Virus record (IMG/VR): IMGVR_UViG_3300021387_000106
Coordinates: 45,801 to 109,800 of that record
Length of the DNA stretch: 64,000 bases
Strand: one strand, 5' to 3'
Source of the DNA: a virus
Lineage: Duplodnaviria; Caudoviricetes
The notes beneath the pieces were generated by a model. That model was not told the origin of the DNA. It saw nothing but the letters and a program-made list of their open reading frames with translations, and ran no database searches. This document shows, piece after piece, positions 47,555 through 63,640 of this stretch. Within the stretch, counting starts at the first letter, position 1. Each line of letters begins with the position of its first letter. The position numbers and the translations under genes were made by a program.

Positions 47555-48634
47555 ATGGAAAAAAAGGTTTTAATTAGTGCACTTGCTGCACTCGTTCGTC
47601 CGAGTTTTAATGTTGCTTCTTATGAGGCTGAGTATTTAACTAAGGCTTTTGCTGCTGCTAAGGGTGATGCTAAGGCATTTGCTGAGGCTGTTGCTGCTAA
47701 GGATTCTGAGGTTGCTAAGGCTGCTGAGGATTGGAAAAAGGCAAATGCTGAGGCACTGGCTAAGGCTGAGGCTGCTGCTACTCCTTATCTTATTATCCGT
47801 ACCTTATTAGATAAAAAGGCTAAGGCTGAGGCACTTGTTGAGGCTAAGGCTGCTAAGTTGGCTAAGGCTACTGAGGCTAAAAAGGCTGAGGCTGCTGAGG
47901 CGCTGGCTAAGGCTAAGGCTGAGGCTCAACCAGTTCGGGCACTTGCTGAGGCACTTGCTGAGGCACTTGCTTTTGTTAGTAGTCCGACTGCTGAGGCTAA
48001 GGCTGAGGCTCTTGCTAAGGCTCTTGAGGTTGCTGAGGCTGAGGCTGCTAAGGGTGTTTTCAATATGTATTGGGATTGTAATAATACTGAGGGCACTCGT
48101 TTAACTGCTGAGGCTGATGTTTACTATTTGCCTACTTCTTTGGGATTCGCTGAGGCTGCTGCTAATTGTCTGCTTAGTTACTCCGTTTTTGCTGAGGTTG
48201 CTGTTAGACGTGCTAAGGCTGCTGAGGCTATTGAGAATCTTCTCAACGGCTTAACTGATAGGATGGTTAAATGCATCGAAAAAGGTGCAAAGATTGAGGC
48301 TGTTAGGGCTAAGTTGTCTGAGGCACTGGCTGAGGCTGAGGCTAAGGCTGCTGCTAAGGCTGAGGCTCTTGCTGCTGAGGCTGCTGCTAAGTTTAAGCGT
48401 GTTTCTCTAACTGCTGAGGCTGCTGAGGCTGCTGCTAAGGCTGCTGCTTGCAAGGTTGGCACTGCTGCTAAGAAAAAGGCTGAGGCTGAGGCTAAGAAAA
48501 AGGCTAAGGCTGCTGAGGCTGCTGCTACTGCATGGAACGTGTTTAAACACGAATACGCTGAGGCTGCTGCTAAGGCTGAGGCTGAGGCTTTTGAGGTTGC
48601 TGAGGCTGTTGAGGCTGAGGCTGCTGCTAAGTAA
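47555..48634 (+). CDS. Ala/Glu/Lys-rich low-complexity helical protein
   Basis: 359-aa ORF with a TTTAATACATT...ATTATG leader and unique non-repeat islands, followed by a terminator. Confidence 0.7.
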   Translation: MEKKVLISALAALVRPSFNVASYEAEYLTKAFAAAKGDAKAFAEAVAAKDSEVAKAAEDWKKANAEALAKAEAAATPYLIIRTLLDKKAKAEALVEAKAAKLAKATEAKKAEAAEALAKAKAEAQPVRALAEALAEALAFVSSPTAEAKAEALAKALEVAEAEAAKGVFNMYWDCNNTEGTRLTAEADVYYLPTSLGFAEAAANCLLSYSVFAEVAVRRAKAAEAIENLLNGLTDRMVKCIEKGAKIEAVRAKLSEALAEAEAKAAAKAEALAAEAAAKFKRVSLTAEAAEAAAKAAACKVGTAAKKKAEAEAKKKAKAAEAAATAWNVFKHEYAEAAAKAEAEAFEVAEAVEAEAAAK

Positions 48635-48657
48635 CTTAAAACTCTCTTTCTAAGTTT

Positions 48658-48712
48658 GAGGCTAAGGCTTAACCAGTCTTAGCCTCTTTCTTACTTTCTT
48701 TTTTTTCTTTTC
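48658..48712 (+). terminator. Intrinsic terminator
   Basis: GAGGCTAAGGCT-TAACC-AGTCTTAGCCTC followed by a long T-rich tract. Confidence 0.7.
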
Positions 48713-49296
48713 TGAGTGAGGCACTTGCTTGTAAATAAGTCGAATTATTAAATATGTATGGTTACTAAAAAGGTTAAGGCTGAGGCACTGGCTGAGGCTG
48801 CTGCTTTTATTGTGTTCGATTCACAAAATATTTGCTATTACCTTTTTGTTTGGTTTTTATTTTCTGAGGCTGCTGCTGAGGAAAATAAATTTTAGTTTAC
48901 TTTGAAAATATTTTTTTCTTAGACTACACAAATAAAAAGGCTGCTCTTTGACAAAATGAAACGAAATAAATATTGTTTGGAAAAGTTTTCATTTAGATTT
49001 TATTCTTTTAGATTTTAATTTTCTTAGATTTTATTTCGTGAACACTGCAAGGCTATTACCAGATTTTACTTTTTTATAAAGATTGATCTTGCGAGCTTTG
49101 CAGAATTGATACAAGATATAATTCATAATTGAGTTTTATCAGATGCAGGAGAGTGCAATACGGCACTCTCCTTTGTTGTTTGGATTTTATTTTTTGTTTT
49201 GATTGGTTATTCCTGATTTCAAAATATTTTTTTGAGATTTGGATTTGAGTTCGATTCTCAATCTTAGCGCAATTAATTTTTAAAACTCAAAAGATT

Positions 49297-49521
49297 ATGA
49301 AAAGAAAAGATTACTATTTAGTTCGTGACAATATCTTAGGAATTGTCATTGGTGGTTTTACTGTGATCGCTGATTACGAGTTACCAATTTCCATTTCCAC
49401 AAAAACATATTTGCAATATGTGGAAAATAAGAGAAAAGCAATTTGCAGAGAAATGCACCTGAAAGCAAATTGTTTTGAATCTTGGTTAGTAGATTTAGTT
49501 ACCTACCGTAACCGCTTATAA
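49297..49521 (+). CDS. Hypothetical protein
   Basis: Preceded by the conserved TAAAACTCA...ATTATG leader. Confidence 0.65.
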   Translation: MKRKDYYLVRDNILGIVIGGFTVIADYELPISISTKTYLQYVENKRKAICREMHLKANCFESWLVDLVTYRNRL

Positions 49522-49662
49522 GATGTATAACTTAAAACTTAATTGAATTATGAAAAATCTATGTGAATTTGCCGAAAGTATTTTGGCACGGAACACGATC
49601 GAAACTTTTATTGAGATTATTTGCAGTTTGTCAGATGATGATGTAAAACAGATAATTGCAGG

Positions 49663-49971
49663 ATGAAAGTTTTGGATGATAGAAAGCGGTTAGACTATCA
49701 GCGTAGTTTAGCCGCACAATTTTTCTGCAAGAATTATTCGAGGGAGCAAAGATACCTGATTATTTTGCAGAGAGATTTGGAGAAAGGATTTCAAGCCATT
49801 ACGAGCTTGGGAATTGAGAAAGCGAAGTCTTTCCAGATATTTTATGATTTTCTTTTGGATTTTGAGAATCTGAATGAAAAGATGATTGAGTTTCGTTGGA
49901 GTGAAGATTTTCTGAATGAAAACGGAATTGACTATTCTGAATTGAAGAGATTATATCTCGCTGCGAATTAG
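49663..49971 (+). CDS. Hypothetical protein
   Basis: Coupled to an upstream 38-codon ORF (49550); its stop is the TAG of the hairpin loop. Confidence 0.65.
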   Translation: MKVLDDRKRLDYQRSLAAQFFCKNYSREQRYLIILQRDLEKGFQAITSLGIEKAKSFQIFYDFLLDFENLNEKMIEFRWSEDFLNENGIDYSELKRLYLAAN

Positions 49972-50017
49972 TTTTTGTGGCGAGGACTATTTATTCACTT
50001 TAAAACTCAATGACATT

Positions 50018-50305
50018 ATGAAAAAGAATCTGATTATTGTAGTGGTTACTGTTTTGTCGGTTTTCGCTATTGAGAGTGCGGTTTACTTTGGCTACTGGTG
50101 TAATAATCTCCACAAGAGATATTCTTTGGTGGTAAATCAGAATCGCAAAATGAGAAATGAGATTCGCAATTACGAGGAAATCTTGGATTCTATTGACAAC
50201 GTGCATCATCACGATTATTTGACAACGATTCGAGGTTACAAGGAATTGCGAGGTTACAATGAGATTCGCCCTGTTTATTCTTCTTTGCAGGTTGCTGCGA
50301 AGTAG
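50018..50305 (+). CDS. Hypothetical membrane-anchored protein
   Basis: N-terminal TM segment; follows a hairpin-leader element. Confidence 0.65.
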   Translation: MKKNLIIVVVTVLSVFAIESAVYFGYWCNNLHKRYSLVVNQNRKMRNEIRNYEEILDSIDNVHHHDYLTTIRGYKELRGYNEIRPVYSSLQVAAK

Positions 50306-50375
50306 AGAATGAATTAAAGATTGTAGCGGATTAGTTTCCGCTACGATTTCTATTTTCACTAATACATTATGAATT

Positions 50376-50663
50376 ATGAAAGCAAAGGATTTATTGAATT
50401 GGGTAGTAGATTTTAATCTCAATGGCGAGGATCTATTTTCCGTAGAGATTTCCGAGAGTGACGAATTTGAAAGTCAGAGTGATTTCATTGAGAAATTCTT
50501 TGGCTGTATTCCAGACAAGGAGATTCCGGCAGGAGATTACATTTACATTTGGTCTGACGTTTTGCCCTACGAGTTCTATGACAAGAAACTGGAGCAAAAA
50601 GCGGAGATTGCATTGAAAGCGCATGAGGATTACAAAATCTACCTTTTCCGAATTGAGGATTAA
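50376..50663 (+). CDS. Hypothetical acidic protein
   Basis: Follows a hairpin-leader element. Confidence 0.7.
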   Translation: MKAKDLLNWVVDFNLNGEDLFSVEISESDEFESQSDFIEKFFGCIPDKEIPAGDYIYIWSDVLPYEFYDKKLEQKAEIALKAHEDYKIYLFRIED

Positions 50664-50741
50664 GTACGATTATTCCTATTTGCTTGCAAAGTACGAGAAT
50701 TACTTTGCGAGTACGATTATAAACTCAAAAGTACGTGAATT

Positions 50742-51134
50742 ATGAATGAAAAGGTATTATCAATGGCAAACGATTCCGTTGCCTGGTATCTCAGAAACTT
50801 TAATGTTATTGGGATAGAGTACGAGAATGATTCGAGTTGGTTCTACGCTATTGGAAAGTACGAAAATTCTAATCAAGTGAATGTGTTATCGGTTGCGAAG
50901 AAAGATTCGGGCTGCAAGACTACTGTATTTGGGGATTTCAATTACTTTGCCATTCTCTATGCGTTACACGCTTGCGGATATTCTGCGAAATGGACTGCGA
51001 AAGGTTACGTGATGTGGCCCGTTTGGTATCTCAATCGTTTTGAAATGCAAAATTTCCTGATTGAGTACGACAAGATTATTTCAAAGTACGGATTTGATAG
51101 GCTATCGGTTGAAAGGAATACTTATCTCTCTTGA
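50742..51134 (+). CDS. Hypothetical protein
   Basis: Follows a hairpin-leader element. Confidence 0.7.
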   Translation: MNEKVLSMANDSVAWYLRNFNVIGIEYENDSSWFYAIGKYENSNQVNVLSVAKKDSGCKTTVFGDFNYFAILYALHACGYSAKWTAKGYVMWPVWYLNRFEMQNFLIEYDKIISKYGFDRLSVERNTYLS

Positions 51135-51194
51135 ATTATTCTGCAAGGATTAGTTTCCTTGCGGAGTACGATTTACTTTAATACATTATGAATT

Positions 51195-51419
51195 ATGAGA
51201 AAATTAGTTATCCTGACAATGGGCAGCGTTATTTTGTTGCCGTTCGTGTTCATTATCTGCAATTCTAATTGGATTTGTGGTATTCTTTCTTTGGTTGCTA
51301 TTTTGGCAATTACTATGACTGGAGATAGAAAGGACAGATTATTTTGGGGTTTGTACTGGAAGTATCTGAAATCTATCGTAAAGAAGTTGTTTCCATTACC
51401 AAAAGAGTATAGTTTATGA
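51195..51419 (+). CDS. Hypothetical two-TM protein
   Basis: Follows a hairpin-leader element; coupled to a 43-codon ORF at 51416-51547. Confidence 0.65.
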   Translation: MRKLVILTMGSVILLPFVFIICNSNWICGILSLVAILAITMTGDRKDRLFWGLYWKYLKSIVKKLFPLPKEYSL

Positions 51420-51628
51420 GGCAGCGTATTTGTGTGCAAACTCCCAATGGCGGATTTGCAGAGATCGCCGCTAAATGCGACGGAAAGAAATTGTGGACTG
51501 ATGGAATTAGATTTTGGCGAGGAAAGTTCTTGTGGTTTCCTTGGTAACTTATTGCTCTGAGCTGATTAGTTTCGGCTTGGAGTACGAGAAATTTATCTCA
51601 TATTGTTTAATTTAAAACTCGATTAATT

Positions 51629-52135
51629 ATGAAAAAGATTCAGAAAGAAGTCGTAATCAAGCGTTACGACACAATGTTTGTTGCCAACGATGGCACGGAG
51701 TTCACAACGGAAGAAGAGTGCAAGAAGTACGAAGAAAGTGCAAAGTGTGCTTTGATGGCACGTTACAATTTGCTTGTCATCAAGGAATCAGATTGCTTTT
51801 CCCTCTTTGGTTTTGGCTCTGACGAAGATGTTATCAATGTTGTAAAGGTTGAGTCTAAAGAAGATATAAATCTGATTCTGCAACTTTTGATTATCGAAAA
51901 TCCTTGGCATTACGATGAAAACAAGGCTGAAAATCCCGATGCTGCTGCAAGTAAGAAAGAAAATCTGAGAAAAGTAACTGAACGCCTGACGAAAGCATTG
52001 CAGGAAAAGGATTTGATTTTCATCGGACGTGGTTACGATTCTGATGGATTCTATTTCGAGGGAACTCGCAATGAGCATATCCGTGTGCTGGAGAATATCG
52101 GAAAAGAGAAATCGGAATCTGAAACTGGCGAATAA
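51629..52135 (+). CDS. Hypothetical protein
   Basis: FVANDGTEFTTEEECKKYE motif, common in small phage proteins; follows a hairpin-leader element. Confidence 0.75.
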   Translation: MKKIQKEVVIKRYDTMFVANDGTEFTTEEECKKYEESAKCALMARYNLLVIKESDCFSLFGFGSDEDVINVVKVESKEDINLILQLLIIENPWHYDENKAENPDAAASKKENLRKVTERLTKALQEKDLIFIGRGYDSDGFYFEGTRNEHIRVLENIGKEKSESETGE

Positions 52136-52207
52136 TCTATCTCTATTGTCGGAATGGAATTAGTTTTCTATTCCGATGCTATAAAACTCTAAAAGAAAGG
52201 AAATATT

Positions 52208-52345
52208 ATGAAGACGTTTGAACAGATTGCGTCACAATGTGAGCGCATTGCCAGACTTTACTACAAAGGTTTTGGCACAAAGAAGATGTTAGAAACGGCT
52301 GAGAGATTTTTCTTTTCTCAGCAGAAAGTCGGACTATGTTTTTAA
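52208..52345 (+). CDS. Small hypothetical protein (45 aa, below ORF-track cutoff)
   Basis: ATG follows the hairpin-leader element with loop at 52160. Confidence 0.5.
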   Translation: MKTFEQIASQCERIARLYYKGFGTKKMLETAERFFFSQQKVGLCF

Positions 52346-52356
52346 TCTGAAATATT

Positions 52357-52677
52357 ATGGATGCAATTAAGATTTCGCAAGAAAGTTTGGATGCTTTCAA
52401 GATTCAGAAAGAATCTCCATGTTGGCGAGAGGATGAAGTCTGCAATATGATTTCTGATTCTATCAATGAGCATTTTCGTGAAGAGAATAACGGATGCGAT
52501 TCTGACGTTTTCGTTGATGAAGTGATTGAGGATGGTGTGATTGCTTTGAATTGGCACACATTTTTAGATTGCTACGTTACGACTGACTACGTTACGAGAG
52601 TTGCAGCGTTTGTCTTTGAGAAATTCCCTGACGTTAAAACTATCATGTCGCCTTGCAAGGATTTTGAAAGGAATTGA
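52357..52677 (+). CDS. Hypothetical acidic protein
   Basis: ATTATG start; followed by a 47-codon ORF at 52680-52823. Confidence 0.65.
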   Translation: MDAIKISQESLDAFKIQKESPCWREDEVCNMISDSINEHFREENNGCDSDVFVDEVIEDGVIALNWHTFLDCYVTTDYVTRVAAFVFEKFPDVKTIMSPCKDFERN

Positions 52678-52888
52678 ATATGAAACAGATTGTTAAGAAT
52701 TTCCCTACTTTGCGGAAAGCGCAAAATTTCCTGCAAGGTTTGTATTCTCGCTACAATTATGTGAGATTGTCCGATTTTCCTAAATTCTCAGAAAATGGCG
52801 AATATGTTTTCACTGTTGACTGATTCCTTGACTTTGTGCGGATTAGTTTCCGCATGAAGTACGATTGTTTAACTCAAATGGATTAATT

Positions 52889-53068
52889 ATGGCTAAGATG
52901 TCTTTAAACAAACTGGTTGCTGTCAATTCGTACAATGCAAATAGTAATCTGATGTACGAATTGGAACGCAAGGGAGAAAAAGATAGTGTGCAATATCTTT
53001 GCTTGAAGAATGAGAATGAGCGTTTAGAAAAGCGTTATCCGAGTTTGCGCACAAATCTCTATTGCTGA
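52889..53068 (+). CDS. Hypothetical protein
   Basis: Start reassigned to the ATTATG after the hairpin. Confidence 0.6.
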   Translation: MAKMSLNKLVAVNSYNANSNLMYELERKGEKDSVQYLCLKNENERLEKRYPSLRTNLYC

Positions 53069-53127
53069 TTATATTTCCCTCTGATTAGATTCTGAGGGAA
53101 GTACAATTTAATTAAACTCAAACGATT

Positions 53128-53616
53128 ATGAATACAAACGATTTATGGAAGATTTTCACTACTGACAAAAGTATTGTGATTCTGACTGATGTGCCGAGAA
53201 ATTACCACAATGGCGACGGAGTTTATATCCTGATGAAACAATTGCAGGAGATATACGGAAGTAACCTTTGCAGTACACAAAAGTTTGATGAAAGATTCGA
53301 TAAGATTGAAGATTTCAATATCATTCTCAAAACTGGTTATAATCTCGACGGAAACAGATTGATTTGTGCGCATTTGTTCGATTTCGACCCTAAAACGAAT
53401 TTGCTTTTGGTAGATAATACCAAGAGTTTGCGGATGAAAGAAGATAACGAGTTTGTGTATCGTATTCAGAAAACGCAAATAAAATGTATTGATGGTTGGA
53501 ACGGATTGCGAAAGCACATTCTTTGGACTATGGGTAGAGATACCTGTTGGACTTTTTGGGGAGATGCACAATTTGGCGAACAAAAGATTATCTCACTTGA
53601 AAGAAAGTGCGCTTGA
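53128..53616 (+). CDS. Hypothetical protein
   Basis: Follows a hairpin-leader element. Confidence 0.7.
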   Translation: MNTNDLWKIFTTDKSIVILTDVPRNYHNGDGVYILMKQLQEIYGSNLCSTQKFDERFDKIEDFNIILKTGYNLDGNRLICAHLFDFDPKTNLLLVDNTKSLRMKEDNEFVYRIQKTQIKCIDGWNGLRKHILWTMGRDTCWTFWGDAQFGEQKIISLERKCA

Positions 53617-53677
53617 TTACTTTGGTGCAATTAGTTTTGCACCTAAGTACAATTTACTCACTTAAACATTATGAATT

Positions 53678-53950
53678 ATGATGTACGATTTCACTTTATT
53701 CTTTGAAGATTGCAATTCTAACTTTGCAGATTTCGATGAATTTGCAGAGAAGTGCGAGAACTTAGATTCAGTTTGTGATGTTGATTATGACAACGAGGAC
53801 GTTACTTTCTATGACTTTGCGTTTGGTTGTGACTATCGTCAAGGTTTCTGCGAAAAATCTCTCAATGCTGACAAGGATTTCAAGGATATGGCAAAACACC
53901 AGATCAAAGTTCAGAGCGAGTTTCGTTCTGCAATGGGAATGTGGTTTTAA
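53678..53950 (+). CDS. Hypothetical highly acidic protein
   Basis: Follows a hairpin-leader element; D/F-rich; followed by a 57-codon ORF at 53963-54136. Confidence 0.65.
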   Translation: MMYDFTLFFEDCNSNFADFDEFAEKCENLDSVCDVDYDNEDVTFYDFAFGCDYRQGFCEKSLNADKDFKDMAKHQIKVQSEFRSAMGMWF

Positions 53951-54187
53951 ATCTCAGAGAATATGAACGGAAAGAATTTCATTGTGGTGTATCAAGGAAT
54001 GTATTACACCAAACCGATGTGGGGACCGACATTTAGCCCTCACAAGAAAGATGCAACTCTTTTTACTGAAAAGCAGGCGAAAGAAGTTTGTCGTGATTTA
54101 CATGATTTCAAAGGAATCAGTTATCAAGCAGCGTGAGCGATTTGGGCATTAGTTTGCCCGAATCGTACCAATTAAAAACTCAATATT

Positions 54188-54379
54188 ATGGTTACAAAGA
54201 GTTACACCTACAAAGGTTATGAGATTCAGCGAAAAAGAGTAGTTGAATTGAAAAATGGACATTGGGAGCCAACAAAGCAATACGAGATTTATTCTTGTGG
54301 CTACATGATTCCCTGCATCGTTGATACGTTGAAAGAGGCGAAAGCTGAAATCAACCGAAGAATAGAATTATATTCATAA
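54188..54379 (+). CDS. Hypothetical protein
   Basis: Follows a hairpin-leader element; TLKEAKAEI motif. Confidence 0.65.
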   Translation: MVTKSYTYKGYEIQRKRVVELKNGHWEPTKQYEIYSCGYMIPCIVDTLKEAKAEINRRIELYS

Positions 54380-54455
54380 TTCGATAATGTATTTCCGGGT
54401 GCGCTCTATGAGAATAGTGCGTGCCTACTATTTATTAACTAAAACTCAGTGAATT

Positions 54456-54968
54456 ATGGAAAAATTAGCAGATTACGGAATCAGAATCATTAATCATGGC
54501 GAATGGAGTGACCCAGAAGTTCAATGGAAGAAATCAAGGTTTCAGACTTTGCTTTTCAACTATTGGGATTGTGTGGATTGTTTCGAGAATGACGATTACG
54601 ATTTTGACAACGAAGAAGATTGCGAATTGTTCTATCAGAATCTATTCGAGCTTACTCCAAGTGAGTATGATTATCCGCAAGTTTCTTACGAGTGGACTGT
54701 ATGGACTGATTCTGGCGACGGATTCTACGACGAAACTCTCTTTGATGATGCAGATTACTATAAAGTATATAAGCTATCTCCAAAGAAAGATTTCGTTTTG
54801 CACACGGCAGGGCAGGCATTAAAGCAGGCTTTGAGTTATGTTTTCGATTGCGGAATGAAGAATGTGGAAATTTCCGTTTTCCGTAGGGATGACAGACAGC
54901 GTGAGCGTGTTGCTCATTACATCATGCAGGGTTCTACTTTGCGAAATCAGATGAATTACACAAAGTGA
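54456..54968 (+). CDS. Hypothetical acidic protein
   Basis: Follows a hairpin-leader element. Confidence 0.7.
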   Translation: MEKLADYGIRIINHGEWSDPEVQWKKSRFQTLLFNYWDCVDCFENDDYDFDNEEDCELFYQNLFELTPSEYDYPQVSYEWTVWTDSGDGFYDETLFDDADYYKVYKLSPKKDFVLHTAGQALKQALSYVFDCGMKNVEISVFRRDDRQRERVAHYIMQGSTLRNQMNYTK

Positions 54969-55021
54969 GAGGGATTAGTTTCCCTTTCGCTTACTATTGT
55001 TTCACTAAAACTTTATGAATT

Positions 55022-55402
55022 ATGAGTAAATTACCTACGACTGGCAGAGAATTGCCAAGTCTTTACGTTACGATTATCCGTTCTTTCAGATGGACGCATT
55101 TCAATGGTACTGGAGAGGATAAATTTCCTGCAAAGAGCGTATTCTTTGAGATAATGAAGAAATATCGCTGCAAGAAACCTCAAACCGTTGCAAAGCACAT
55201 TCTAAAAGGCTACAAACCTTCCGCACATGAAAGAAAGTATTGCGCAAAGATTCTTACGGCTACACAATTCCTGAAAACGTTGCAGTTCATGCGCTACAAT
55301 GGCTATATGGAACGTGAACTTGCAAACATGATGATTCTTCCGCTTTCAGAATGGATTGTTTCGAGGACGAAAGAATATGATGAAGCGAAATGGTGTCTTT
55401 AA
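55022..55402 (+). CDS. Hypothetical basic protein
   Basis: Follows a hairpin-leader element. Confidence 0.7.
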   Translation: MSKLPTTGRELPSLYVTIIRSFRWTHFNGTGEDKFPAKSVFFEIMKKYRCKKPQTVAKHILKGYKPSAHERKYCAKILTATQFLKTLQFMRYNGYMERELANMMILPLSEWIVSRTKEYDEAKWCL

Positions 55403-55460
55403 ACTTTCGGGAGATTAGTTTCTCCCTGAGGTTCTACGTTTAACTTAACTCAATTTGATT

Positions 55461-55835
55461 ATGGAACATTTAACCGTTTATGTTTATCGTGACAAAACTA
55501 TTGGAGATTGCACTGCACATGGTGTTACGTCACGTCACGATAGAATTACGTTGCTTTGGGATTGTACTAAGACAGAAGCAATCAAGTATTGTGTTGATAA
55601 AGGAATCGACGTTGATGCTGCATTATGGCTGAATCCGAGAGTCCTTTGGAATGAATATTTGCCATTTGCAGAGCCATTGATTAAGCCAGCAGGTTCAGCA
55701 GGCCCAATGTTTGGTGGCAATTATATTTGCACAAGTGATTCTCGCTTTCCTTGTGTATGCGGAAAGTACGGCAAATATCCTATTCCCGTACATGACCGAT
55801 TTGAAACGCAGGAGTATTGCAACTCTATGGACTAA
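55461..55835 (+). CDS. Hypothetical phage protein
   Basis: GPMFGGNY..TSDSRF...PIPVHDRFE; start reassigned to the ATTATG. Confidence 0.7.
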   Translation: MEHLTVYVYRDKTIGDCTAHGVTSRHDRITLLWDCTKTEAIKYCVDKGIDVDAALWLNPRVLWNEYLPFAEPLIKPAGSAGPMFGGNYICTSDSRFPCVCGKYGKYPIPVHDRFETQEYCNSMD

Positions 55836-55893
55836 AACTTTCGGGCTATTAGTTTAGCCCAGAAGTTCAATGTTTCACTTAAAACTCAGAATT

Positions 55894-56130
55894 ATGTATT
55901 TAGAAACGACTTGTTGTGGGTGTGGAATCGAAAGATGGAACGCTCTAATGAAAGGAGCAAGAAAATGCTCTTACAAAAGACTGGTTGCACGTATAAAGAA
56001 AGAATTACCTGACTTGTACGAATCACTTGCATTGAATTTCTATAATCCTTGGGATGAACAATGCCAACAAACAAAGACGCATTTCATATTAGTACATTCG
56101 GGAATTGAGTATTTTATCCGCAAAAGTTGA
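55894..56130 (+). CDS. Hypothetical protein
   Basis: Start reassigned to the ATTATG after the hairpin. Confidence 0.65.
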   Translation: MYLETTCCGCGIERWNALMKGARKCSYKRLVARIKKELPDLYESLALNFYNPWDEQCQQTKTHFILVHSGIEYFIRKS

Positions 56131-56184
56131 GGGAGATTAGTTTCTCCCTCAACTACTATTGTTTCACTTAAAACTCATTGAATT

Positions 56185-57102
56185 ATGGAGAATTTTGAAG
56201 ATTTCAAGAAACGTAATGTTGGTTTCGATGAAGGCCGTTGGTATGGCTTGGACGAGTATTTTGACAAGACTATGCGTAAATGCTACGATGTGGCTCTGAA
56301 AGTAGAACAAACCTACAATGAATTGCATCCAAACATTAACGAGCCTCAGATTCTCGACATTGTGGAATTTGCAGACGATTTCGAGGTTTACAAGCGTGGA
56401 ATGATTTGCGAGAATCTTTATGGTAAAAGCGAGTTCGGTATGCTTTGTATTTGTGAACATGGTTGCTCTCACACAGATGGGAAATATTTCTCTACTGGTG
56501 GTGGTGCTTTCCGTCATATCCACAAATCTAAGTTGCGCTACGCTGGCGAAACTGAGAATGTAGTTTGGACTTGGGGTTGTTATGGTTCGGGCGCACATCA
56601 ATGTATATATTTCCCTCTGAAAGTTCGCAAATGGATTATTCCTTACGAGCAGCCAAAATTCGGCAGCAAAGTGTATATCAAGGGAAAGAACGCTAAAGAT
56701 ATGTACGGACGTGATTTAGATGCGGTTTGGATTGAGAATTTCGGTTCTTATTTCGGTCACGCTAAATCGTTCAATTCTATCAAGGCTTTCAAGGCATGGG
56801 CTGAATATGTTGGCTACAATAGTTATGCGTTTGACGGAACTTTTGAGCGTAGAAGTCAGCAGAAGATTCAACATCGTTGCATCGTTAAGATGGAAGATTT
56901 GCCAGAAAATGCAAAACCGATGAAAGTTATCGCTAATGGCAGAGTTCACGACGGATGGGTAGTAAACGACGGAATAACCATTACTGAGCTTTGGCTGAAC
57001 GCTTATGACCCTAACGAGGTACGACCTAAGTACGGCACAAAAGAATGGGATGATGAAATACAATTGTTCCACAAGTATTGTCGCAATCCTATGGGTGTTT
57101 AA
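56185..57102 (+). CDS. Hypothetical protein, possibly DUF4121-like
   Basis: STGGGAF...LRYAG...WTWGCYGSG...IYF pattern. The family assignment is from memory only. Confidence 0.6.
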   Translation: MENFEDFKKRNVGFDEGRWYGLDEYFDKTMRKCYDVALKVEQTYNELHPNINEPQILDIVEFADDFEVYKRGMICENLYGKSEFGMLCICEHGCSHTDGKYFSTGGGAFRHIHKSKLRYAGETENVVWTWGCYGSGAHQCIYFPLKVRKWIIPYEQPKFGSKVYIKGKNAKDMYGRDLDAVWIENFGSYFGHAKSFNSIKAFKAWAEYVGYNSYAFDGTFERRSQQKIQHRCIVKMEDLPENAKPMKVIANGRVHDGWVVNDGITITELWLNAYDPNEVRPKYGTKEWDDEIQLFHKYCRNPMGV

Positions 57103-57164
57103 CTCTCTTTGCTTTGCAGGGATTGATTTCTCTGCAAGGTACAATAATTCTAAAACTTTCAATT

Positions 57165-57710
57165 ATGAGACAAGAAGTGTATGATTTGAGGAAATTGGGC
57201 GATAATGCCTATAAGTTCCTGAATGAATGTAACGGACATACTGGAGTATTGTTCGAGAAGAATGTAGAATCTCACATTAACGAAATGTGGCGGTTGTGGC
57301 ACTCTCTTGATGGCACTTGGGATGAATCTTATCGTTACACAAAAGATTATCTTACGAAGATGTGCGAGGATATGCGTAAAAAGAAAATCCGCACAAAAGG
57401 TAAGTGTTTCCCTTTAAAGTCGGGTAATTCTATCTGCAATCAAATGAATCGTATTGTTGTGCTTGCAGGTGGTTATTCCTATGGCAATCCTAATGTTCAT
57501 CTGAAAAGAGCAATCAGTATCGTAGAGCATTACGGAAAGAATATTGCAGCAACAAAGGAATGGAAAGATGCCTATAAAGCTGGATATGATTGGGTAACAT
57601 CTGACATTACAAAGGTAGGATTTAGTTCCGTTGAATCAGAAGCCGTTACATCGGGCTATGCAAAGGCTTACGCTGTAAAGTTTCCCCGTGAGGTCTATGC
57701 AGCACATTAA
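57165..57710 (+). CDS. Hypothetical protein
   Basis: Start reassigned to the ATTATG after the hairpin. Confidence 0.7.
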   Translation: MRQEVYDLRKLGDNAYKFLNECNGHTGVLFEKNVESHINEMWRLWHSLDGTWDESYRYTKDYLTKMCEDMRKKKIRTKGKCFPLKSGNSICNQMNRIVVLAGGYSYGNPNVHLKRAISIVEHYGKNIAATKEWKDAYKAGYDWVTSDITKVGFSSVESEAVTSGYAKAYAVKFPREVYAAH

Positions 57711-57769
57711 CAACTTTGCAGGGATTAGTTTCCCTGCATTGTTCTAATTTAACTTAAACTCAAAGAATT

Positions 57770-58003
57770 ATGGAAGTAAAGAATTTATTCGTGAATTTCG
57801 AGAATGGCGAGAATTGCTTGGTTTACACCTACGATTTGTCTGAGGATGAAGTAAAGCAGTGGTGCGAGAAAGCAACCGACAACAAGGTAATTGAAGTATA
57901 TCATGTTCCTCAAAACGATTTGCAATACTACTGCATCGACGGAAGAGTTTGGGCAGATACGCCAGAACAAGTAGCCAAAGTCAGAAAGTATTTGGCAAAC
58001 TAA
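57770..58003 (+). CDS. Hypothetical protein
   Basis: Follows a hairpin-leader element. Confidence 0.65.
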   Translation: MEVKNLFVNFENGENCLVYTYDLSEDEVKQWCEKATDNKVIEVYHVPQNDLQYYCIDGRVWADTPEQVAKVRKYLAN

Positions 58004-58059
58004 ATGCTTAGAGGGATTAGATTCCCTCTGAGCTTCAATAAACTTTAAAACTTACAATT

Positions 58060-58467
58060 ATGGAGAAAACAAATTTATGGCCCAGACCATTAGACGAAAA
58101 GAATCTAACAACGGACTGGATTGAAGAAATGTTTGAAAGTGGCGGTTGGATGCCTACACCTTACTGCAAGAATGGTACATATCAGTATCTCACTTACATT
58201 GGCGAAACACTGGTTAAAGTTTCGTGGAAATTTGGCGAGAATCAGCTATCATTTATCGTACTTGTAGATATTGAGGGTTGTGATAAATATCTCAGTGAAA
58301 AGGCAAAGACAGCCATTGATAAGATTATTTCTATGATTGAGAATTGGGAGAAAGAAGTCAATGAGTACGCATCTGAGAGTTGTGAGGATATGCTTACTAT
58401 CCGCTACAATGAGGAAAAGAATCGTATTGATTTATTCTTCTACTGGTTGCCAAGCGAATCTCGCTAA
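58060..58467 (+). CDS. Hypothetical acidic protein
   Basis: Follows a hairpin-leader element. Confidence 0.7.
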   Translation: MEKTNLWPRPLDEKNLTTDWIEEMFESGGWMPTPYCKNGTYQYLTYIGETLVKVSWKFGENQLSFIVLVDIEGCDKYLSEKAKTAIDKIISMIENWEKEVNEYASESCEDMLTIRYNEEKNRIDLFFYWLPSESR

Positions 58468-58525
58468 TCGCTTGCACTCTCTTAATTGAGGGTGCGAGTA
58501 CAATTACATTTAAACTCAAAGAATT

Positions 58526-58666
58526 ATGGATGAATACAGAAAAGAACAAATCGAGGCTTTGGAAAAAGCTATTGAGTATTGTGAGAAAGGCGGTTGTACT
58601 GACGTTATACCTCGTATCAACCTGAGAATACACTGGTTAAAAGAAAATTGCAATTTCTACGATTAA
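58526..58666 (+). CDS. Small hypothetical protein (46 aa, below ORF-track cutoff)
   Basis: ATG follows the hairpin-leader element with loop at 58482. Confidence 0.55.
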   Translation: MDEYRKEQIEALEKAIEYCEKGGCTDVIPRINLRIHWLKENCNFYD

Positions 58667-58678
58667 AATGCTGATTCT

Positions 58679-58894
58679 ATGACTATCGGTTACTTTTACA
58701 AAGAGTATGTGATAAACGGAACAAAGTATTTCGTTTCTCAGTATGCAGATAAACCACATTTCGTAAAGCTATGGGAATATGGCTACGTTTATGAGAACTA
58801 TCGTATTGGCAATATGGTTTATCCTACAATGTGCGTCTCTATCAGTCGTGGGCTACGCTCACGTCCGAATCTCAAAAGACTATTCGGTGGTTAG
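58679..58894 (+). CDS. Hypothetical protein
   Basis: Its stop is the TAG of the hairpin loop at 58891. Confidence 0.6.
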   Translation: MTIGYFYKEYVINGTKYFVSQYADKPHFVKLWEYGYVYENYRIGNMVYPTMCVSISRGLRSRPNLKRLFGG

Positions 58895-58931
58895 TTCCAC
58901 TGGATAGCACATTAACTTAAACTCAGTAATT

Positions 58932-59198
58932 ATGAAGAAATTTAAATTCTACAAATGCCTATCAAGTCATGGTGTTTTCTTGGTAGCAAGAGATTGGGCG
59001 AATAACATTCTTGCAGAGTATTATCCACTCTACAAGGAGTTTCATCTAATCGACAAAAGCTATCCTGAACTGGAGCGTTATATGCGCTCTTACCATTTCG
59101 ACCATCAATTCGACGAGATTCCGAGATTCCGTCAGATGAACGAGTTCTTACTAAACAAAAGGAGAAATAACTATGCACTACAAGGATTACGACATTAA
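58932..59198 (+). CDS. Hypothetical protein
   Basis: Follows a hairpin-leader element. Confidence 0.6.
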   Translation: MKKFKFYKCLSSHGVFLVARDWANNILAEYYPLYKEFHLIDKSYPELERYMRSYHFDHQFDEIPRFRQMNEFLLNKRRNNYALQGLRH

Positions 59199-59523
59199 CA
59201 TTCGCATCAACATCAAGAGTTGGTTGTTAGGTGCTTACTCTCTTAGGAAGTTGCAGGAGTTTACCTATCTCGCAAGCGAGTTTGGTATGCACCCAAAGAC
59301 AAAGAATTGCTTTGAATACGGAAAGGCAGCATGATTAAGATTAGCGGACAGAGGATTAATCAAGAATATCTCAAACAAGATTTCTATCCTCACGAAATGG
59401 CAAATGGCACTATCATTATGGTTTCCTACGATGGTCGCTATTATTATTGATTTGTTCTTTTACCTACAAAGCTATCCTGATTAGGTTCGGGATTGCTTAC
59501 CATTAACTTTAACTCAATGAATT

Positions 59524-59841
59524 ATGTTACGGAAAGAACTTGTTGCAAAATTGGAATCTTTGGTACATAACAGATATTCCAAAGAGAGTTTAACCAAGAG
59601 GATTAATGAAATCTTTGGTGTAAATGACATCGAAATTGACTGGCATTGCTTTGAGGAAGAGCCATTCCTTACTGATTTTAATGCTATGTTCACTACCTAC
59701 GACAACGAAAAGGTTGCAAAGAATCTACGTGGAGATTTCGACATCTACTATTTAGAGTGCAAACAACCCAATCACATGAGCATGGAAGTTTACGTTACTG
59801 AGGTCGGCTACGAATTTAAGTACCGCCATTTCGATAAGTAA
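59524..59841 (+). CDS. Hypothetical protein
   Basis: Follows a hairpin-leader element. Confidence 0.7.
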   Translation: MLRKELVAKLESLVHNRYSKESLTKRINEIFGVNDIEIDWHCFEEEPFLTDFNAMFTTYDNEKVAKNLRGDFDIYYLECKQPNHMSMEVYVTEVGYEFKYRHFDK

Positions 59842-59916
59842 CATTACCTCTCTAATCTTACCCTTATCAGTTTAAGGGTGGGATTCCAATATTTATTAAC
59901 TTAAACTCAATAGATT

Positions 59917-60105
59917 ATGAACGAAAAATTAATGTGGCTTTTGGAGATTCACTTTAATCTCTTTCACTCTGATTTAATCAGCAGAGCATTTCACGATGAC
60001 AATGTATCTCTCGAAGATTTCATTTCCGGCTGCGAGAAAATAGGACTTGCAGAGAATGAAGATGAAGATTGCGAGTTTGTACCTGATGAATTTAAAAACG
60101 TGTAA
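59917..60105 (+). CDS. Hypothetical acidic protein
   Basis: Follows a hairpin-leader element. Confidence 0.6.
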   Translation: MNEKLMWLLEIHFNLFHSDLISRAFHDDNVSLEDFISGCEKIGLAENEDEDCEFVPDEFKNV

Positions 60106-60108
60106 GCT

Positions 60109-60606
60109 ATGAATAAGGAAGAAATTATCAAGCAGGCTAAAGAAGAGTTCAAAGATTTCTGTGCCGTTTTCTTGGGTAAGTCACTCGACGAAGTAGATAA
60201 TATCGTTCAGAGAAACGAAAGATTCTGTTTCGGAAGTGCAGATCCAAACACTGAGGAAGATATGCGTGATATTAATTACAAGCATATTCTTGCTACCGTT
60301 TGCCGAATTAACGGCAAAATGCGAATCTCAGAAAATGTGGAGTATTATCCTGATGATAGTTCAGAGTGTATTCGACTTGAATTGCCAGTGCTTGCAAAGC
60401 GTACTATAAAGATTGAAGTAGAAATCGAGTACGAGTATAACGTAAATCATCGTGCTTTGGTTGGTATGGATGAATCTTACATCGACGCTTGCGCAAAGGA
60501 CTTAGCCATTCAGCCTAATGGTAACTCTATCGTGGATGGTGTGAAACTGATTCACGTCTGCAATCGTGAAGAAAATGCCTGGTGGCTTATCAATAACGAT
60601 AAGTAA
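60109..60606 (+). CDS. Hypothetical protein
   Basis: Starts 3 bp after the upstream stop. Confidence 0.7.
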   Translation: MNKEEIIKQAKEEFKDFCAVFLGKSLDEVDNIVQRNERFCFGSADPNTEEDMRDINYKHILATVCRINGKMRISENVEYYPDDSSECIRLELPVLAKRTIKIEVEIEYEYNVNHRALVGMDESYIDACAKDLAIQPNGNSIVDGVKLIHVCNREENAWWLINNDK

Positions 60607-60661
60607 CTACTGGAGAGCGTGATTAGTTTCACGCTTTCTTGCTAATATAAACTCAATAATT

Positions 60662-60952
60662 ATGGAAACAAAAGAATGGTACATCAAGCATGGTTATACG
60701 AGTGAAGAGTATGCTAACCTCATGCGCTTTCACTCAGACCATAAGCGACGCATGGAAAAGCGACGTGCAATAACGAGAATCTGCAATCAGTTAGGACTAC
60801 AATTCCTTTCGTGTGATAGGAGTGTGAACGCTGATAGCTTAGAGAGTATCAAGGCTGCAATATCGGTGCTTAGAAGTAAGAAAATAGAGCCAGTAAAGGT
60901 ATTAGTATCTACGTGTGGTAGTTATCAGTATTCCGCTTTCTATGATTTCTGA
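60662..60952 (+). CDS. Hypothetical protein
   Basis: Follows a hairpin-leader element. Confidence 0.65.
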   Translation: METKEWYIKHGYTSEEYANLMRFHSDHKRRMEKRRAITRICNQLGLQFLSCDRSVNADSLESIKAAISVLRSKKIEPVKVLVSTCGSYQYSAFYDF

Positions 60953-61005
60953 GGGTGCAATCAGTTTTGCACTCCCAGACTATGTTTCACTAAACGTTAT
61001 GAATT

Positions 61006-61251
61006 ATGGCAAAGGTTACTGTTATTTATCTTAGTGTGAATCCAAGTTTCTATGACGTGCATAAATTAGCGAAGTTATCCTTTGACGAGGCAAAGAAGTT
61101 CATTGAGGATGACACTATCGGAGCTTGCTCTCACAAAGTAGTTGAACTGGATATGACGAAGTTTGCAGACTACAATTATTGTGCTGATGGTGCTGACTTA
61201 GGCGACTGGACTGATTCACTCTTAATGTGGATTCGGGTTAGTGGAGATTAG
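61006..61251 (+). CDS. Hypothetical protein
   Basis: Follows a hairpin-leader element; its stop is the TAG of the next loop. Confidence 0.65.
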   Translation: MAKVTVIYLSVNPSFYDVHKLAKLSFDEAKKFIEDDTIGACSHKVVELDMTKFADYNYCADGADLGDWTDSLLMWIRVSGD

Positions 61252-61291
61252 TTTCTCCACCTTCCCCATAAATACTTAAACTCAAACGATT

Positions 61292-61546
61292 ATGAAAACA
61301 AAGTACGAAAACGGATTACTCACATTTACTGAGGATTCTAAGAACGAAAAGATTTTTAGTGTCAATGGTACGAAGTATGGCGACGGAGATAGATTTGTTC
61401 GCCTGATGACTGAAAATGAGTTGAAGGAAGAAATTCCTGACGATTCCGATTGGAGTATGCCATTCGACAAAATGGAAGTAGGAGATACATCTACCTATGG
61501 CTACTGGTTCTACGACAAAGCAAACGTTATTGTTCGTGTTGCCTGA
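61292..61546 (+). CDS. Hypothetical protein
   Basis: Follows a hairpin-leader element. Confidence 0.65.
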   Translation: MKTKYENGLLTFTEDSKNEKIFSVNGTKYGDGDRFVRLMTENELKEEIPDDSDWSMPFDKMEVGDTSTYGYWFYDKANVIVRVA

Positions 61547-61608
61547 CTACTGAGGAAAAGCGGATTAGTTTCCGCTTTCCTGCAATTATTAACTTAAACT
61601 CAATGATT

Positions 61609-61992
61609 ATGGATAAAGATTATTCTCACATGGCAGGTAAGCACATCGTTATTGATGGTGTGAATTACTTTAGTAATGAGTATTTCGGCGACGGACTTTC
61701 AAACGGCTACGTTTACAAGAATGAGCAAGCCTTTTGCGAGAATCCTGATGAAGTATGTTACATACCAGAAGCCGCTTTCTCTGATGCTACGCCAGTAACT
61801 ATCGACGGAGTGGATTACTACTCACAAGAGGAAGTTGGCGGTTACTCTCGAAACGACCTAAAGGATTTAGTGACAGACGAAGAAGGAAACTATTTCGAGG
61901 ATTCAGAAGGAACTCTTATCGACGAAGAGATTCTTTTCTACTCTATCTTTTGGTGTTGCCCTGAAACAAGGTTGAACGAAATATACGATTGA
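61609..61992 (+). CDS. Hypothetical highly acidic protein
   Basis: Start reassigned to the ATTATG; internal IDGVxY repeat. Confidence 0.7.
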   Translation: MDKDYSHMAGKHIVIDGVNYFSNEYFGDGLSNGYVYKNEQAFCENPDEVCYIPEAAFSDATPVTIDGVDYYSQEEVGGYSRNDLKDLVTDEEGNYFEDSEGTLIDEEILFYSIFWCCPETRLNEIYD

Positions 61993-61994
61993 CT

Positions 61995-62249
61995 ATGAAA
62001 AGAGAAAAAGTAAAAGAATTGCTTACTGAGCTTATCGAGAGAGATTTCACTATCGAAGAGATTTCAAACCTCATGGGCGACGTGAAAAATTATCTCGACG
62101 AAAAGAGAGAATCTGAGCGTAAAGAGGAAGATGAAGAATATCGGAAAATTCATGCTACAAGTATTCCTCTCTATCGTAAATGGTTGCAAGAAACTCTTGA
62201 TTCGTATGGACTTGACTACACTATTGAAGATTTTGAAGAAGAGTTCTGA
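61995..62249 (+). CDS. Hypothetical acidic protein
   Basis: Directly follows the upstream stop. Confidence 0.65.
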   Translation: MKREKVKELLTELIERDFTIEEISNLMGDVKNYLDEKRESERKEEDEEYRKIHATSIPLYRKWLQETLDSYGLDYTIEDFEEEF

Positions 62250-62312
62250 CTATCGGTTAAGCAGATTAGATTCTGCTTAATCACTATTATTTACCTTTAA
62301 AAGTTGTGAATT

Positions 62313-62615
62313 ATGGAACAGAATCAAATTTGCGTATTGTTTTGGGTAAAGTTTACTTTCAACTACCCCGACATCAAAGAAGTAATCAAGTGGATTTGTG
62401 AGAAAACCGACAAAAACTGGCTCTACGACCATCTTTTGAACAAATTCTATCACTTGTACGACACATTCGGCAGTCATGCAGTTATGGGAATGTTCTACTG
62501 CGAAATCGACAAGGATTTGCGCGACGCTCTCACGGAATACGCTCTGACTGTTTGGGCTCCCGTTGGTATGTGCCATACATACGAGGAAGTTAAAGGCCTG
62601 CTTGGAATCAAGTAA
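62313..62615 (+). CDS. Hypothetical protein
   Basis: Follows a hairpin-leader element. Confidence 0.7.
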   Translation: MEQNQICVLFWVKFTFNYPDIKEVIKWICEKTDKNWLYDHLLNKFYHLYDTFGSHAVMGMFYCEIDKDLRDALTEYALTVWAPVGMCHTYEEVKGLLGIK

Positions 62616-62682
62616 AGCAATCTCCAGTTCCTTTAGGTAGGACTGGAGAACGAATTTAGTATTAACTTAAACTCATTGAATT

Positions 62683-63132: not shown

Positions 63133-63189
63133 CAACTGAGGGAGATTAGTTTCTCCCTTGGTTACTATACTCACTTAAACTTATGAATT

Positions 63190-63408
63190 ATGAGAAGAAT
63201 TGATTTAATCAAATGTAAGGTTGCAAGATTGGAAGTGCTTACTGGCATTGACTTTCAAGTGCTTGGTTGTAATGGAGAGTATAGTGTAACTACTAAAAGT
63301 GGAGTTCCTATTACGGCTTTTAACTACATGGGCTACTATCGTAAATCCAAAGACTTAGAAATCTATCTCGACGGAGTGATTGCAGGACTTGAATTTAATC
63401 AGAAGTAG
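63190..63408 (+). CDS. Hypothetical protein
   Basis: Follows a hairpin-leader element. Confidence 0.65.
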   Translation: MRRIDLIKCKVARLEVLTGIDFQVLGCNGEYSVTTKSGVPITAFNYMGYYRKSKDLEIYLDGVIAGLEFNQK

Positions 63409-63410
63409 TT

Positions 63411-63638: not shown

Positions 63639-63640
63639 CT

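Follow-up and report, generated by a model that had tools for sequence, protein, structure and literature searches.

In which molecule, and on which of its strands, does a repeated phage hairpin work? The question is raised by a hairpin at positions 51553-51584 of a 64,000-nt stretch of virus DNA (Duplodnaviria; Caudoviricetes), hereafter the window, which comprises bases 45801-109800 of the complete 109.8-kb IMG/VR record IMGVR_UViG_3300021387_000106 (107-bp terminal repeat). Positions below are those of the window unless they are given as genome positions. A preliminary description had found the non-Watson-Crick positions in such stems to be mostly G-T on the plus strand, and A-C on the minus strand, and had proposed that selection acts on a single-stranded plus-sense structure, either mRNA or top-strand single-stranded DNA. 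Both the bias and the proposal stand up: in 52 copies of the hairpin G·T outnumbers A·C by 100 to 11, the excess goes beyond the skew of the region, and the two strands fold unequally. We read the bias as showing selection on the sense strand in its single-stranded form.

Wobble pairs and strand preference of the hairpins

The hairpin at 51553-51584 lies on the plus strand. In the minimum free energy (MFE) structure its 5' arm (51553-51565, 13 nt including the closing A of an A-U pair) pairs with a 3' arm (51572-51584) that ends in the AGTA of a conserved AGTAC motif, and the two enclose the hexaloop TTAGTT (51566-51571; UUAGUU in RNA), whose flanking pair covaries. Between 51554-51565 and 51572-51583 there are 12 pairs, four of them G·T (G54·T83, T58·G79, G59·T78 and T63·G74), just as first described, and T53-A84 adds a 13th. 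The wobble counts given earlier for the copies at 49957 (3 in 11), 52831 and 54963 (2 each) also held on recount. Folded as RNA, the plus strand of this hairpin reaches -18.5 kcal/mol (z -6.0) and the minus strand -6.4 kcal/mol (z -2.3).

On the plus strand between 49.9 and 63.2 kb there are 22 occurrences of the loop motif ATTAGNTT, and inverted repeats of unrelated sequence flank every one except that at 51506. Using strand-symmetric criteria, we assembled a family of 52 copies, 32 from this phage and 20 from its relatives G001 (104.7 kb) and G002 (a fragment), in which the cassettes lie on the other record strand. The 32 copies fall between genome 95.7 kb and 5.9 kb and so span the record end.

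At 11 stem positions read in a fixed register, the 52 copies contain 441 Watson-Crick pairs, 100 G·T, 11 A·C and 20 other appositions; G·T thus takes 17.5% of stem positions, A·C 1.9% and other mismatches 3.5%. This phage contributes 55 G·T against 9 A·C, and the two relatives 45 against 2. A set of 21 window copies picked by the loop motif alone, with no pairing criterion, gave 196 Watson-Crick, 33 G·T, 5 A·C and 18 other over 12 positions in fixed register. The observed G·T share of G·T plus A·C in the 52 copies is 0.90, whereas a share of 0.545 is expected from regional composition, 0.61 from third codon positions of the early genes and 0.665 from these same arms once the partner is shifted by 1-3 columns. 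Binomial p values for the pooled copies range over these nulls from 7e-9 to 5e-12, and this phage alone gives 3e-4 under the most conservative of them, leaving the excess unexplained by the G+T skew. Because the G of the G·T pairs is evenly split between the arms (49 times in the 5' arm, 51 times in the 3' arm), the bias is not a composition effect of one arm. More distant relatives (L052, L068, L054 and L062) show 38 G·T against 2 A·C in 21 model matches, a count that is supportive only, as the model favours G·U.

Folding energies agree with the counts. Across the 52 copies the RNA MFE averages -17.4 kcal/mol (standard deviation 1.8) in the sense strand and -11.4 kcal/mol (standard deviation 4.0) in the antisense strand; the sense strand folds better in 49 copies, with a mean difference of -6.0 kcal/mol (Wilcoxon p 2e-9). 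The preliminary description had the hairpins folding on the plus strand only. The preference for that strand holds, but "only" was too strong, since copies with few wobbles fold nearly as well in antisense (56123-56156, -21.6 against -20.2 kcal/mol).

"Sense strand" is also the right term, rather than "plus strand". All members are co-oriented with the surrounding genes, including two on the minus strand (genome 23016 and 27237) whose G·U pairs are in their own (minus) sense. Another minus-strand member with the loop TTAAGT (L002:7917-7950) stands 5 nt upstream of a tRNA-Ser(GCU) (L002:7827-7912, minus), in the sense of the tRNA; the element is therefore not tied to the translation of a downstream gene. 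The last copy of the plus arm, at genome 5923-5956, keeps the usual loop in plus orientation with no leader, box or gene after it. On the minus strand this hairpin (L001:5923-5966, outside the window) is followed by seven Ts and stands directly past a convergent gene, genome 6019-6903. Its wobble polarity is reversed, with A·C on the plus strand, and its antisense fold is the better one (-24.4 against -18.4 kcal/mol), as in only two other copies of the family. From its sequence this copy is also the predicted canonical terminator of the convergent minus-strand gene, and the wobble polarity follows the transcript that would use it.

An ungapped alignment of the 52 copies (A1) defines the element further. 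Paired cells make up 91.6% of it, compared with 51% in shuffles and 40-52% in slid registers, and double changes occur at 13 of 13 pairs (273 cells), so that all of them covary. The outermost bases of what looks like an 8-nt loop (columns 14 and 21) are among these, with AU in 35 copies, GC in 10, CG in 5, GU in 2 and no copy unpaired; the loop is therefore 6 nt rather than 8, and the element is a 13-bp stem with a hexaloop. Stems of different copies are unrelated in sequence but all of one length; the lower stem is semi-conserved, as is the basal AGUAC, the consensus reading TnAnTTT.. in the 5' arm and ..GTAC in the 3' arm. In the loop, U at position 1, A at 3 and U at 6 are at least 90% conserved, and so is the C after the stem. 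The loop consensus is U-N-A-N-N-U, found as UUAGUU in 22 copies and UUAAUU in 7, and most of the deviant loops have a GNRA core, which is an RNA-stabilising feature, between pairable bases (UGAGAA, AGAGAU, AGAAAU, UGGAAU and UGAGAG). A palindromic double-stranded operator or symmetric cruciform, already disfavoured in the preliminary description, was rejected on the strand bias, on stems that are unrelated between copies yet covary at 13 of 13 pairs, and on a conserved centre that is no palindrome.

Cassette anatomy and a proposed function

The hairpins occupy an early-type arm that runs from 49.9 kb in the window to the record end and on through the first 6 kb of the record, with all genes on the plus strand and mostly small. 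Each cassette has the same order: gene n ends in its stop codon, some 2 nt separate this from the hairpin with AGUAC at its 3' base, and a short AT-rich spacer and a leader then precede the AUG of gene n+1. The distance from the upstream stop to the 5' arm has a median of 2 nt, and that from the 3' arm to the next ATG a median of 25 nt. At our starting hairpin the spacer and the A-rich, G-poor leader (..TTTAAAACTCGATTAATT) fill 51585-51628 on the plus strand, an unusually long gap of 43 nt, before a small gene of 168 aa (51629-52135, plus strand) with no Pfam family. The leader, ..(C/A)AC TTAAAACTCAA..ATT ATG in DNA and ..CAC UUAAAACUCAA..AUU in RNA, where it is A-rich and G-free, keeps a fixed distance to the ATG, and the spacer before it varies in length. 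It has A at -3 in 97% of copies, at -12 in 93% and at -13 in 83%, has no G from -11 to -22, and takes the place of a Shine-Dalgarno sequence before the start codon. By its base pattern it matches the mRNAs of Bacteroidetes that lack a Shine-Dalgarno sequence, in which A is enriched at -3, -6 and -11 to -15 (PMC7366714). Such a leader (..CACTTAAAACTCAATCAATTATG) precedes a gene, without a hairpin, in an unrelated viral contig of higher G+C content from a similar sample (L048:960-1000, minus strand), and given this case the leader may be a general expression signal of the host type.

We propose, with a probability of roughly 0.6, that the hairpin is a 3'-end element of the sense RNA, serving as attenuator, stabiliser or processing signal and joined to the signals that express the following gene. 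About 32 RNA stem-loops, each with a 13-bp stem of free sequence and a hexaloop, would fold in the sense transcript of the early-type arm. Each would serve as the 3'-end element of its gene cassette, attenuating or ending transcription from upstream, and/or protecting or defining the 3' end of the upstream message, and the sequence 3' of the hairpin would carry the signals for expressing the next gene. With the structure needed in RNA only, G-C and A-U pairs could drift freely to G·U, and changes that make A·C in the RNA would be removed, which would leave the observed bias. Termination, attenuation or stabilisation, a promoter for each cassette and the reading of the loop by a factor are all steps that we infer; the last of these is possibly part of the mechanism.

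The conserved flanks would double as linkers for gene exchange between related phages, and there are signs in the aligned genomes and contigs that the cassettes may act in this way here. The early arms of G000 and G001 are collinear and share only scattered blocks, two of which begin at the leader just after the hairpin. A contig from a rumen RNA library joins 61588 to 56160, a point 4 nt past the 3' arm in both cassettes, and in another rumen contig the open reading frame (ORF) at 52357-52677 (52357-52680) is replaced by 249 other bases. Rumen contigs also diverge or rejoin at gene or cassette borders, with loose ends at 59337, 60105, 63407-63410 and 63622.

The closest described elements are the promoter-early stem-loops (PeSLs) of T4-type phages. 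PeSLs join a stem-loop terminator or attenuator to an early promoter between the ORFans of hyperplastic regions and serve as recombination linkers, as described for RB49/phi1, PST/T4 and nt-1/KVP40 (Arbiol et al. 2010, PMC2839356; Comeau et al. 2014, PMC4122927), and G-T pairs are marked in the stems of a published PeSL figure (PMC2839356). Both they and the present array are dense, repeated intergenic cassettes in a hyperplastic run of small ORFans. Both have a stable stem-loop just past the upstream stop, after which come the next gene's start codon and the signals for its expression. They also share G-T pairs in the stems and an apparent coincidence of the cassettes with points of gene exchange between related phages. 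However, the array belongs to a siphovirus-like phage of Bacteroidota type and not to a T4-like myovirus, and it has neither sigma-70 -35/-10 elements nor a Shine-Dalgarno sequence. Its geometry is fixed (13 bp plus hexaloop) and its loop conserved, whereas the stem-loops of PeSLs differ in position and many are polyG/polyC. Promoter and terminator activity has been measured for PeSLs, while the array is known from sequence.

The RNase III signals of T7 and T3 (such as R1.1) lie between consecutive early genes, function in RNA and leave the upstream message with a hairpin at its 3' end. They resemble the array in placing hairpins between consecutive early genes of one co-oriented transcript. 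Unlike the continuous 13 bp found here, they consist of about two helical turns with an internal loop, number only five and have no conserved apical loop. An intrinsic terminator would likewise be a stable, G+C-rich hairpin of the sense RNA placed directly after the stop codon and co-oriented with the gene, tolerating G·U on the sense strand only; the array differs in that 47 of 52 copies lack a run of four Ts within 10 nt of the stem, and in its conserved loop and fixed stem length.

Several observations weigh against the proposal of a 3'-end element fused to expression signals. The 10 nt after the stem are on average 43% T, and only five of the 52 copies have a run of four Ts. About 10 window copies pass a lax T-rich rule, and the same genome has hairpin-plus-T-run terminators at operon ends; because T runs are few in the array while the genome uses them elsewhere, we read the hairpins as attenuators and/or signals that protect or process 3' ends. 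Transcript ends are not visible in the RNA-library data from the rumen (bovine and sheep), which are assembled contigs that carry no information on ends, strand or level; these contigs are 90-99% identical to the arm, and many break off close to the repeated leader, as expected of assembly breaks. The arm may be one long operon, as no promoter was identified. A scan for sigma-70-type promoters (-35/-10) found no enrichment (39 against 43.5 expected), and the box after the stem, T-A-C-n-A-T-T-(G/T), is only a partial match to the Bacteroidetes -7 consensus TAnnTTTG, with its C the best conserved base. In Bacteroidetes promoters roughly 20 nt separate the -33 and -7 elements. The TTTG of the 5' arm lies 22-23 nt upstream of the TAC box, too far for the two to form such a pair, and this candidate was rejected. 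Transcription and the direction of replication inferred from GC skew coincide, so that strand bias alone cannot separate RNA from lagging-strand-template DNA. Finally, conservation of the loop in phages whose primases are only 66-69% identical is unexplained by a simple terminator or stabiliser.

The hairpins might also assist pausing, a role described for Bacteroides capsule operons (PMC11685472).

Alternative explanations

The conserved loop lends itself to another explanation, which overlaps the 3'-end element in strand and molecule and gives the loop the main role. The hairpin may be a sense-RNA site for a dedicated factor that reads the hexaloop, of phage or host origin (an endoribonuclease that would cleave the early transcript into units, an antiterminator or terminator, or a regulator of translation or stability), with the stem serving to present the loop. 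Conservation of loop positions 1, 3 and 6 on unrelated stems speaks for this, as do the recurrence of UUAGUU and UUAAUU, the loops UUAAUU, UUAAAU or UUAAGU in the relatives with 66-69% identical primases, the fixed stem length with its semi-conserved lower part and basal AGUAC, and the lack of a U tract for termination without a factor. The loop is also kept in the last copy, which has no downstream gene, and in the copy before the tRNA. Yet no candidate factor emerged: none of the 21 early-arm proteins scanned had a Pfam family above cut-off, and inspection by eye of the small conserved early proteins (57770-58003, 54188-54379 and 49663-49971) revealed no evident RNA-binding character. In G001 the loop is quite different in about a third of the copies, so that its identity is not essential there, and the curated covariance models of Rfam gave no match to 48600-64000 at E ≤ 1. 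We hold such a factor to be possible and rather less likely than the 3'-end element proposed above.

The boxB hairpin of lambda-type nut sites is a model for such recognition, being a hairpin of the nascent sense RNA with a conserved GNRA-like loop that a phage protein reads. It has a 5-bp stem and a pentaloop and occurs once or twice per genome beside boxA, whereas the 32 copies of the array have 13-bp stems, and an N-like protein was not found.

A more doubtful explanation places the conserved loop in double-stranded DNA, as a promoter element (an activator or sigma box, similar to a MotA box) 11-12 bp upstream of a TAnnAT-like box, with a hairpin wrapped around it whose stems would still be selected in RNA. 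The spacing from the loop to the T-A-C-n-A-T motif is fixed, and T4 middle promoters have a similar architecture of a MotA box, about 12 bp and TAnnnT. The downstream box, however, is best conserved at the C in its third position, which is no -10 or -7 feature, and the copy at genome 5936 keeps the loop with neither a downstream box nor a gene. A profile of sigma region 2 found nothing over the genome, and neither did that of T7-type RNA polymerase (PF00940), although the latter search was uninformative because the profile matched no control genome.

A weak match to a sigma-70 region-4-like helix-turn-helix (E 0.003, below cut-off) was seen at genome 22885-22941 on the minus strand (L002:2885-2941). 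It sits in an open frame of 153 aa whose start lies 18 nt past the hairpin at genome 23016 on the minus strand.

It is quite improbable that the hairpins fold in top-strand single-stranded DNA, as priming or assembly signals on the lagging-strand template or, by a logic like that of attC, as recombination targets, recognised by structure, of the tyrosine recombinase encoded where the array ends. In DNA, too, G·T destabilises less than any other mismatch, and with DNA parameters the plus strand still folds better in 39 of 52 copies. GC skew turns positive beside the primase gene at about 47-48 kb; for a fork moving rightward, the plus strand of the array would then serve as lagging-strand template. 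The array is closed by genes for a 283-aa tyrosine recombinase, an FtsK-like ATPase and a ParB-like protein, and gene content appears to be exchanged at the cassettes. Against this, the hairpins are weak as DNA: that at 51553-51584 reaches -5.0 kcal/mol on the plus strand and -1.5 on the minus strand with an ensemble frequency of 0.24, and the mean difference between strands in the family shrinks to -1.4 kcal/mol. G·T at 17.5% of stem positions is what is expected of an apposition counted as a pair, as in RNA, and not of a tolerated defect. The GNRA cores of variant loops, the strict placement between stop and start codons and the polarity of the terminal copy, which follows the convergent transcript, also speak against DNA. 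A simpler reading of the recombinase with the FtsK-like and ParB-like proteins is a plasmid-like module for maintenance and dimer resolution, and a related Bacteroides phage has a partition protein and a tyrosine-type integrase arranged alike without the hairpins. Because G·T is nearly pair-like, RNA energies are uniform, wobble-rich copies are barely stable as DNA and loops have GNRA cores, the sequences lead us to favour mRNA over top-strand DNA as the selected molecule.

Integron attC sites also follow small, co-oriented genes as imperfect inverted repeats, with conserved structure and strand specificity, and a tyrosine recombinase is near the array as well. They are, however, bottom-strand DNA hairpins with R and L core boxes at the stem base and extrahelical bases, whereas the array conserves an apical loop, favours the sense strand and has a leader in each unit. 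Inverse core sites of attC (RYYYAAC / GTTRRRY) at the hairpin base are not in the alignment consensus. The virion RNA polymerase of phage N4 uses three promoters with a hairpin in template-strand DNA, with a short stem (7 bp in a construct described) and a small loop centred at -11 (PMC4496689). These too are phage early-gene signals read single-stranded, in which the stem sequence is free and the pairing and loop bases are required. The array, in contrast, comprises about 32 copies of a 13-bp stem with a hexaloop, and its template strand carries A·C mismatches and folds worse by 6 kcal/mol as RNA and 1.4 kcal/mol as DNA; we rejected a hairpin promoter of this type.

Finally, there is next to no chance that the G·T excess arose without selection, as a by-product of composition or of drawing helices that extend through G·T and never through A·C: the region is skewed (G>C, +0.12 to +0.23), the arms are G+T-rich and the hand-drawn helices of the preliminary description permitted G·T, but the bias persists at 33:5 in fixed register on copies picked without a pairing rule, exceeds all three null shares (p ≤ 7e-9) and recurs in relatives read on the other record strand, so this origin was rejected.

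The array in its phage and clade

Coordinates of the single copies follow a frame of 13+8+13 nt, and we give in brackets the RNA MFE (sense/antisense, kcal/mol) and the R1 score in bits; all copies listed are on the plus strand. The copy at 49954-49987 (-15.5/-5.7; 30.0) has four G·U pairs, and the TAG of its loop is the stop codon of the ORF at 49663-49971. This is just one upstream ORF, and conservation of the loop as a stop codon was rejected. There follow copies at 50317-50350 (-18.8/-13.5; 36.5), 51136-51169 (-19.4/-11.5; 35.8), 52146-52179 (-16.4/-9.6; 28.8) and 52829-52862 (-17.6/-11.9; 37.1), one with the loop TTAGAT at 53071-53104 (-15.6/-11.3; 31.6), and further copies at 53617-53650 (-15.3/-14.5; 37.8) and 54135-54168 (-20.4/-13.7; 32.6). 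The variant loop TGAGAA, with a GNRA core, is that of 54395-54428 (-16.7/-7.2), the orthologue of a G001 copy with the same loop type, in a homology block at 54175-54463. Copies at 54961-54994 (-18.6/-9.9; 33.3), 55401-55434 (-15.4/-11.0; 35.6) and 55835-55868 (-15.5/-14.7; 37.0) lead to the one at 56123-56156 (40.5), mentioned above, which has no wobble and folds on both strands.

Beyond it lie 57109-57142 with the loop TTGATT (-18.8/-8.1; 31.9), 57711-57744 (-17.6/-15.4; 34.1) and 58003-58036, again with TTAGAT (-20.4/-15.6; 33.5). The closing pair is C-G in 58468-58501 (loop TTAATT; -20.1/-10.0; 31.2) and G-C in 58877-58910 (loop TTAGTT; -15.7/-8.6; 27.3). The loop is TTAGGT in 59467-59500 (-14.2/-8.8; 27.7) and TCAGTT both in 59853-59886 (-16.9/-11.1; 30.5) and, past a copy at 60609-60642 (-16.8/-11.0; 29.5), in 60947-60980 (-16.6/-15.8; 28.2). 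The copy at 61234-61267 (-16.6/-17.8; 27.1) is one of three that fold slightly better in antisense, and that at 61551-61584 (-15.9/-14.5) adjoins the contig junction at 61588. The series in the window ends with 62252-62285 (loop TTAGAT; -15.4/-10.6; 23.7), 63132-63165 (-17.9/-13.2; 36.2) and 63854-63887 (G-C closing pair, loop TTAATT; -18.9/-14.3; 31.7), and the array runs on past the record end with copies at genome 1765, 4056, 4517 and 5936.

The phage itself is siphovirus-like, with a tape measure protein of 3286 aa, a terminase, an SPP1-type portal and a primase. The portal is closest (39-44% identity) to uncultured human-gut phage contigs and to phages of Bacteroides and Phocaeicola, and Parabacteroides phages are also among its relatives. 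From these relatives and the leader pattern we regard this rumen phage as being of Bacteroidota type, the host type being predicted to be Bacteroidota. The ParB-like protein, the FtsK-like ATPase and the tyrosine recombinase, which has a Phage_integrase domain, close the early arm, and the GC skew becomes positive at the primase gene.

Elsewhere in the window, tape measure families match the tape measure protein (20248-30108, minus strand) at residues ~1130-2110 only, which leaves its first 1100 and its last 1200 residues unassigned. The protein had no sequence match to any solved structure, and the idea of a virion RNA polymerase fused to it was dropped. The terminase large subunit (36450-39104, plus strand, 884 aa) has its terminase domain from about residue 409, and its N-terminal 400 residues gave weak DnaC-like and intein-like matches. 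A 359-aa protein (47555-48634, plus strand) consists largely of Ala/Glu/Lys repeats, encoded by 12-nt periodic DNA of the GCTGAGGCT type, and a canonical terminator (48658-48686) comes after its gene. At 5310-6413 on the minus strand there is a weak match to the Fib_succ_major domain; a reverse transcriptase occupies the corresponding place in the related Bacteroides phage BI-TP1.

A covariance model built from the alignment found 10 further hairpins, co-oriented with the array, in each of two phages with primases 66-69% identical (L052 and L068). More distant relatives, including the cultured BI-TP1, gave no match with the model. BI-TP1 is LoVEphage-like, with a portal 44% identical and the same gene order; as it lacks the hairpins, it leaves no tractable isolate. 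None of these hairpins was found in two relatives identified through the ParB-like protein (L004 and L005, 44-48% identity), and a nucleotide search of GenBank phages with 49500-57000 gave no match. Collection scans with patterns of the loop plus leader returned mostly single chance matches, and G001 and G002 were the only real relatives so found.

Wobble bias is a cheap test, from sequence alone, of the molecule and the strand in which a repeated phage hairpin works. In this case it shifts the array away from a DNA operator, a cruciform or an N4-like promoter and towards an element of the sense RNA. It also isolates one concrete question, that of a loop conserved across a clade without a known reader. 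We suggest, tentatively, that the hexaloop on a fixed 13-bp stem is the mark of an undescribed system of RNA punctuation in a clade of ~105-110-kb rumen phages of Bacteroidota type. If this is true, a dedicated factor from the phage or its host would bind or cut every early message at the hairpins, producing 3' ends without a U tract or controlling the whole early set at once. On the reading that we prefer, the PeSL-type design of a hairpin joined to the next gene's signals as an exchangeable linker would reach beyond T4-like coliphages to the large Bacteroidota-type phages of the rumen, whose expression signals are poorly known.

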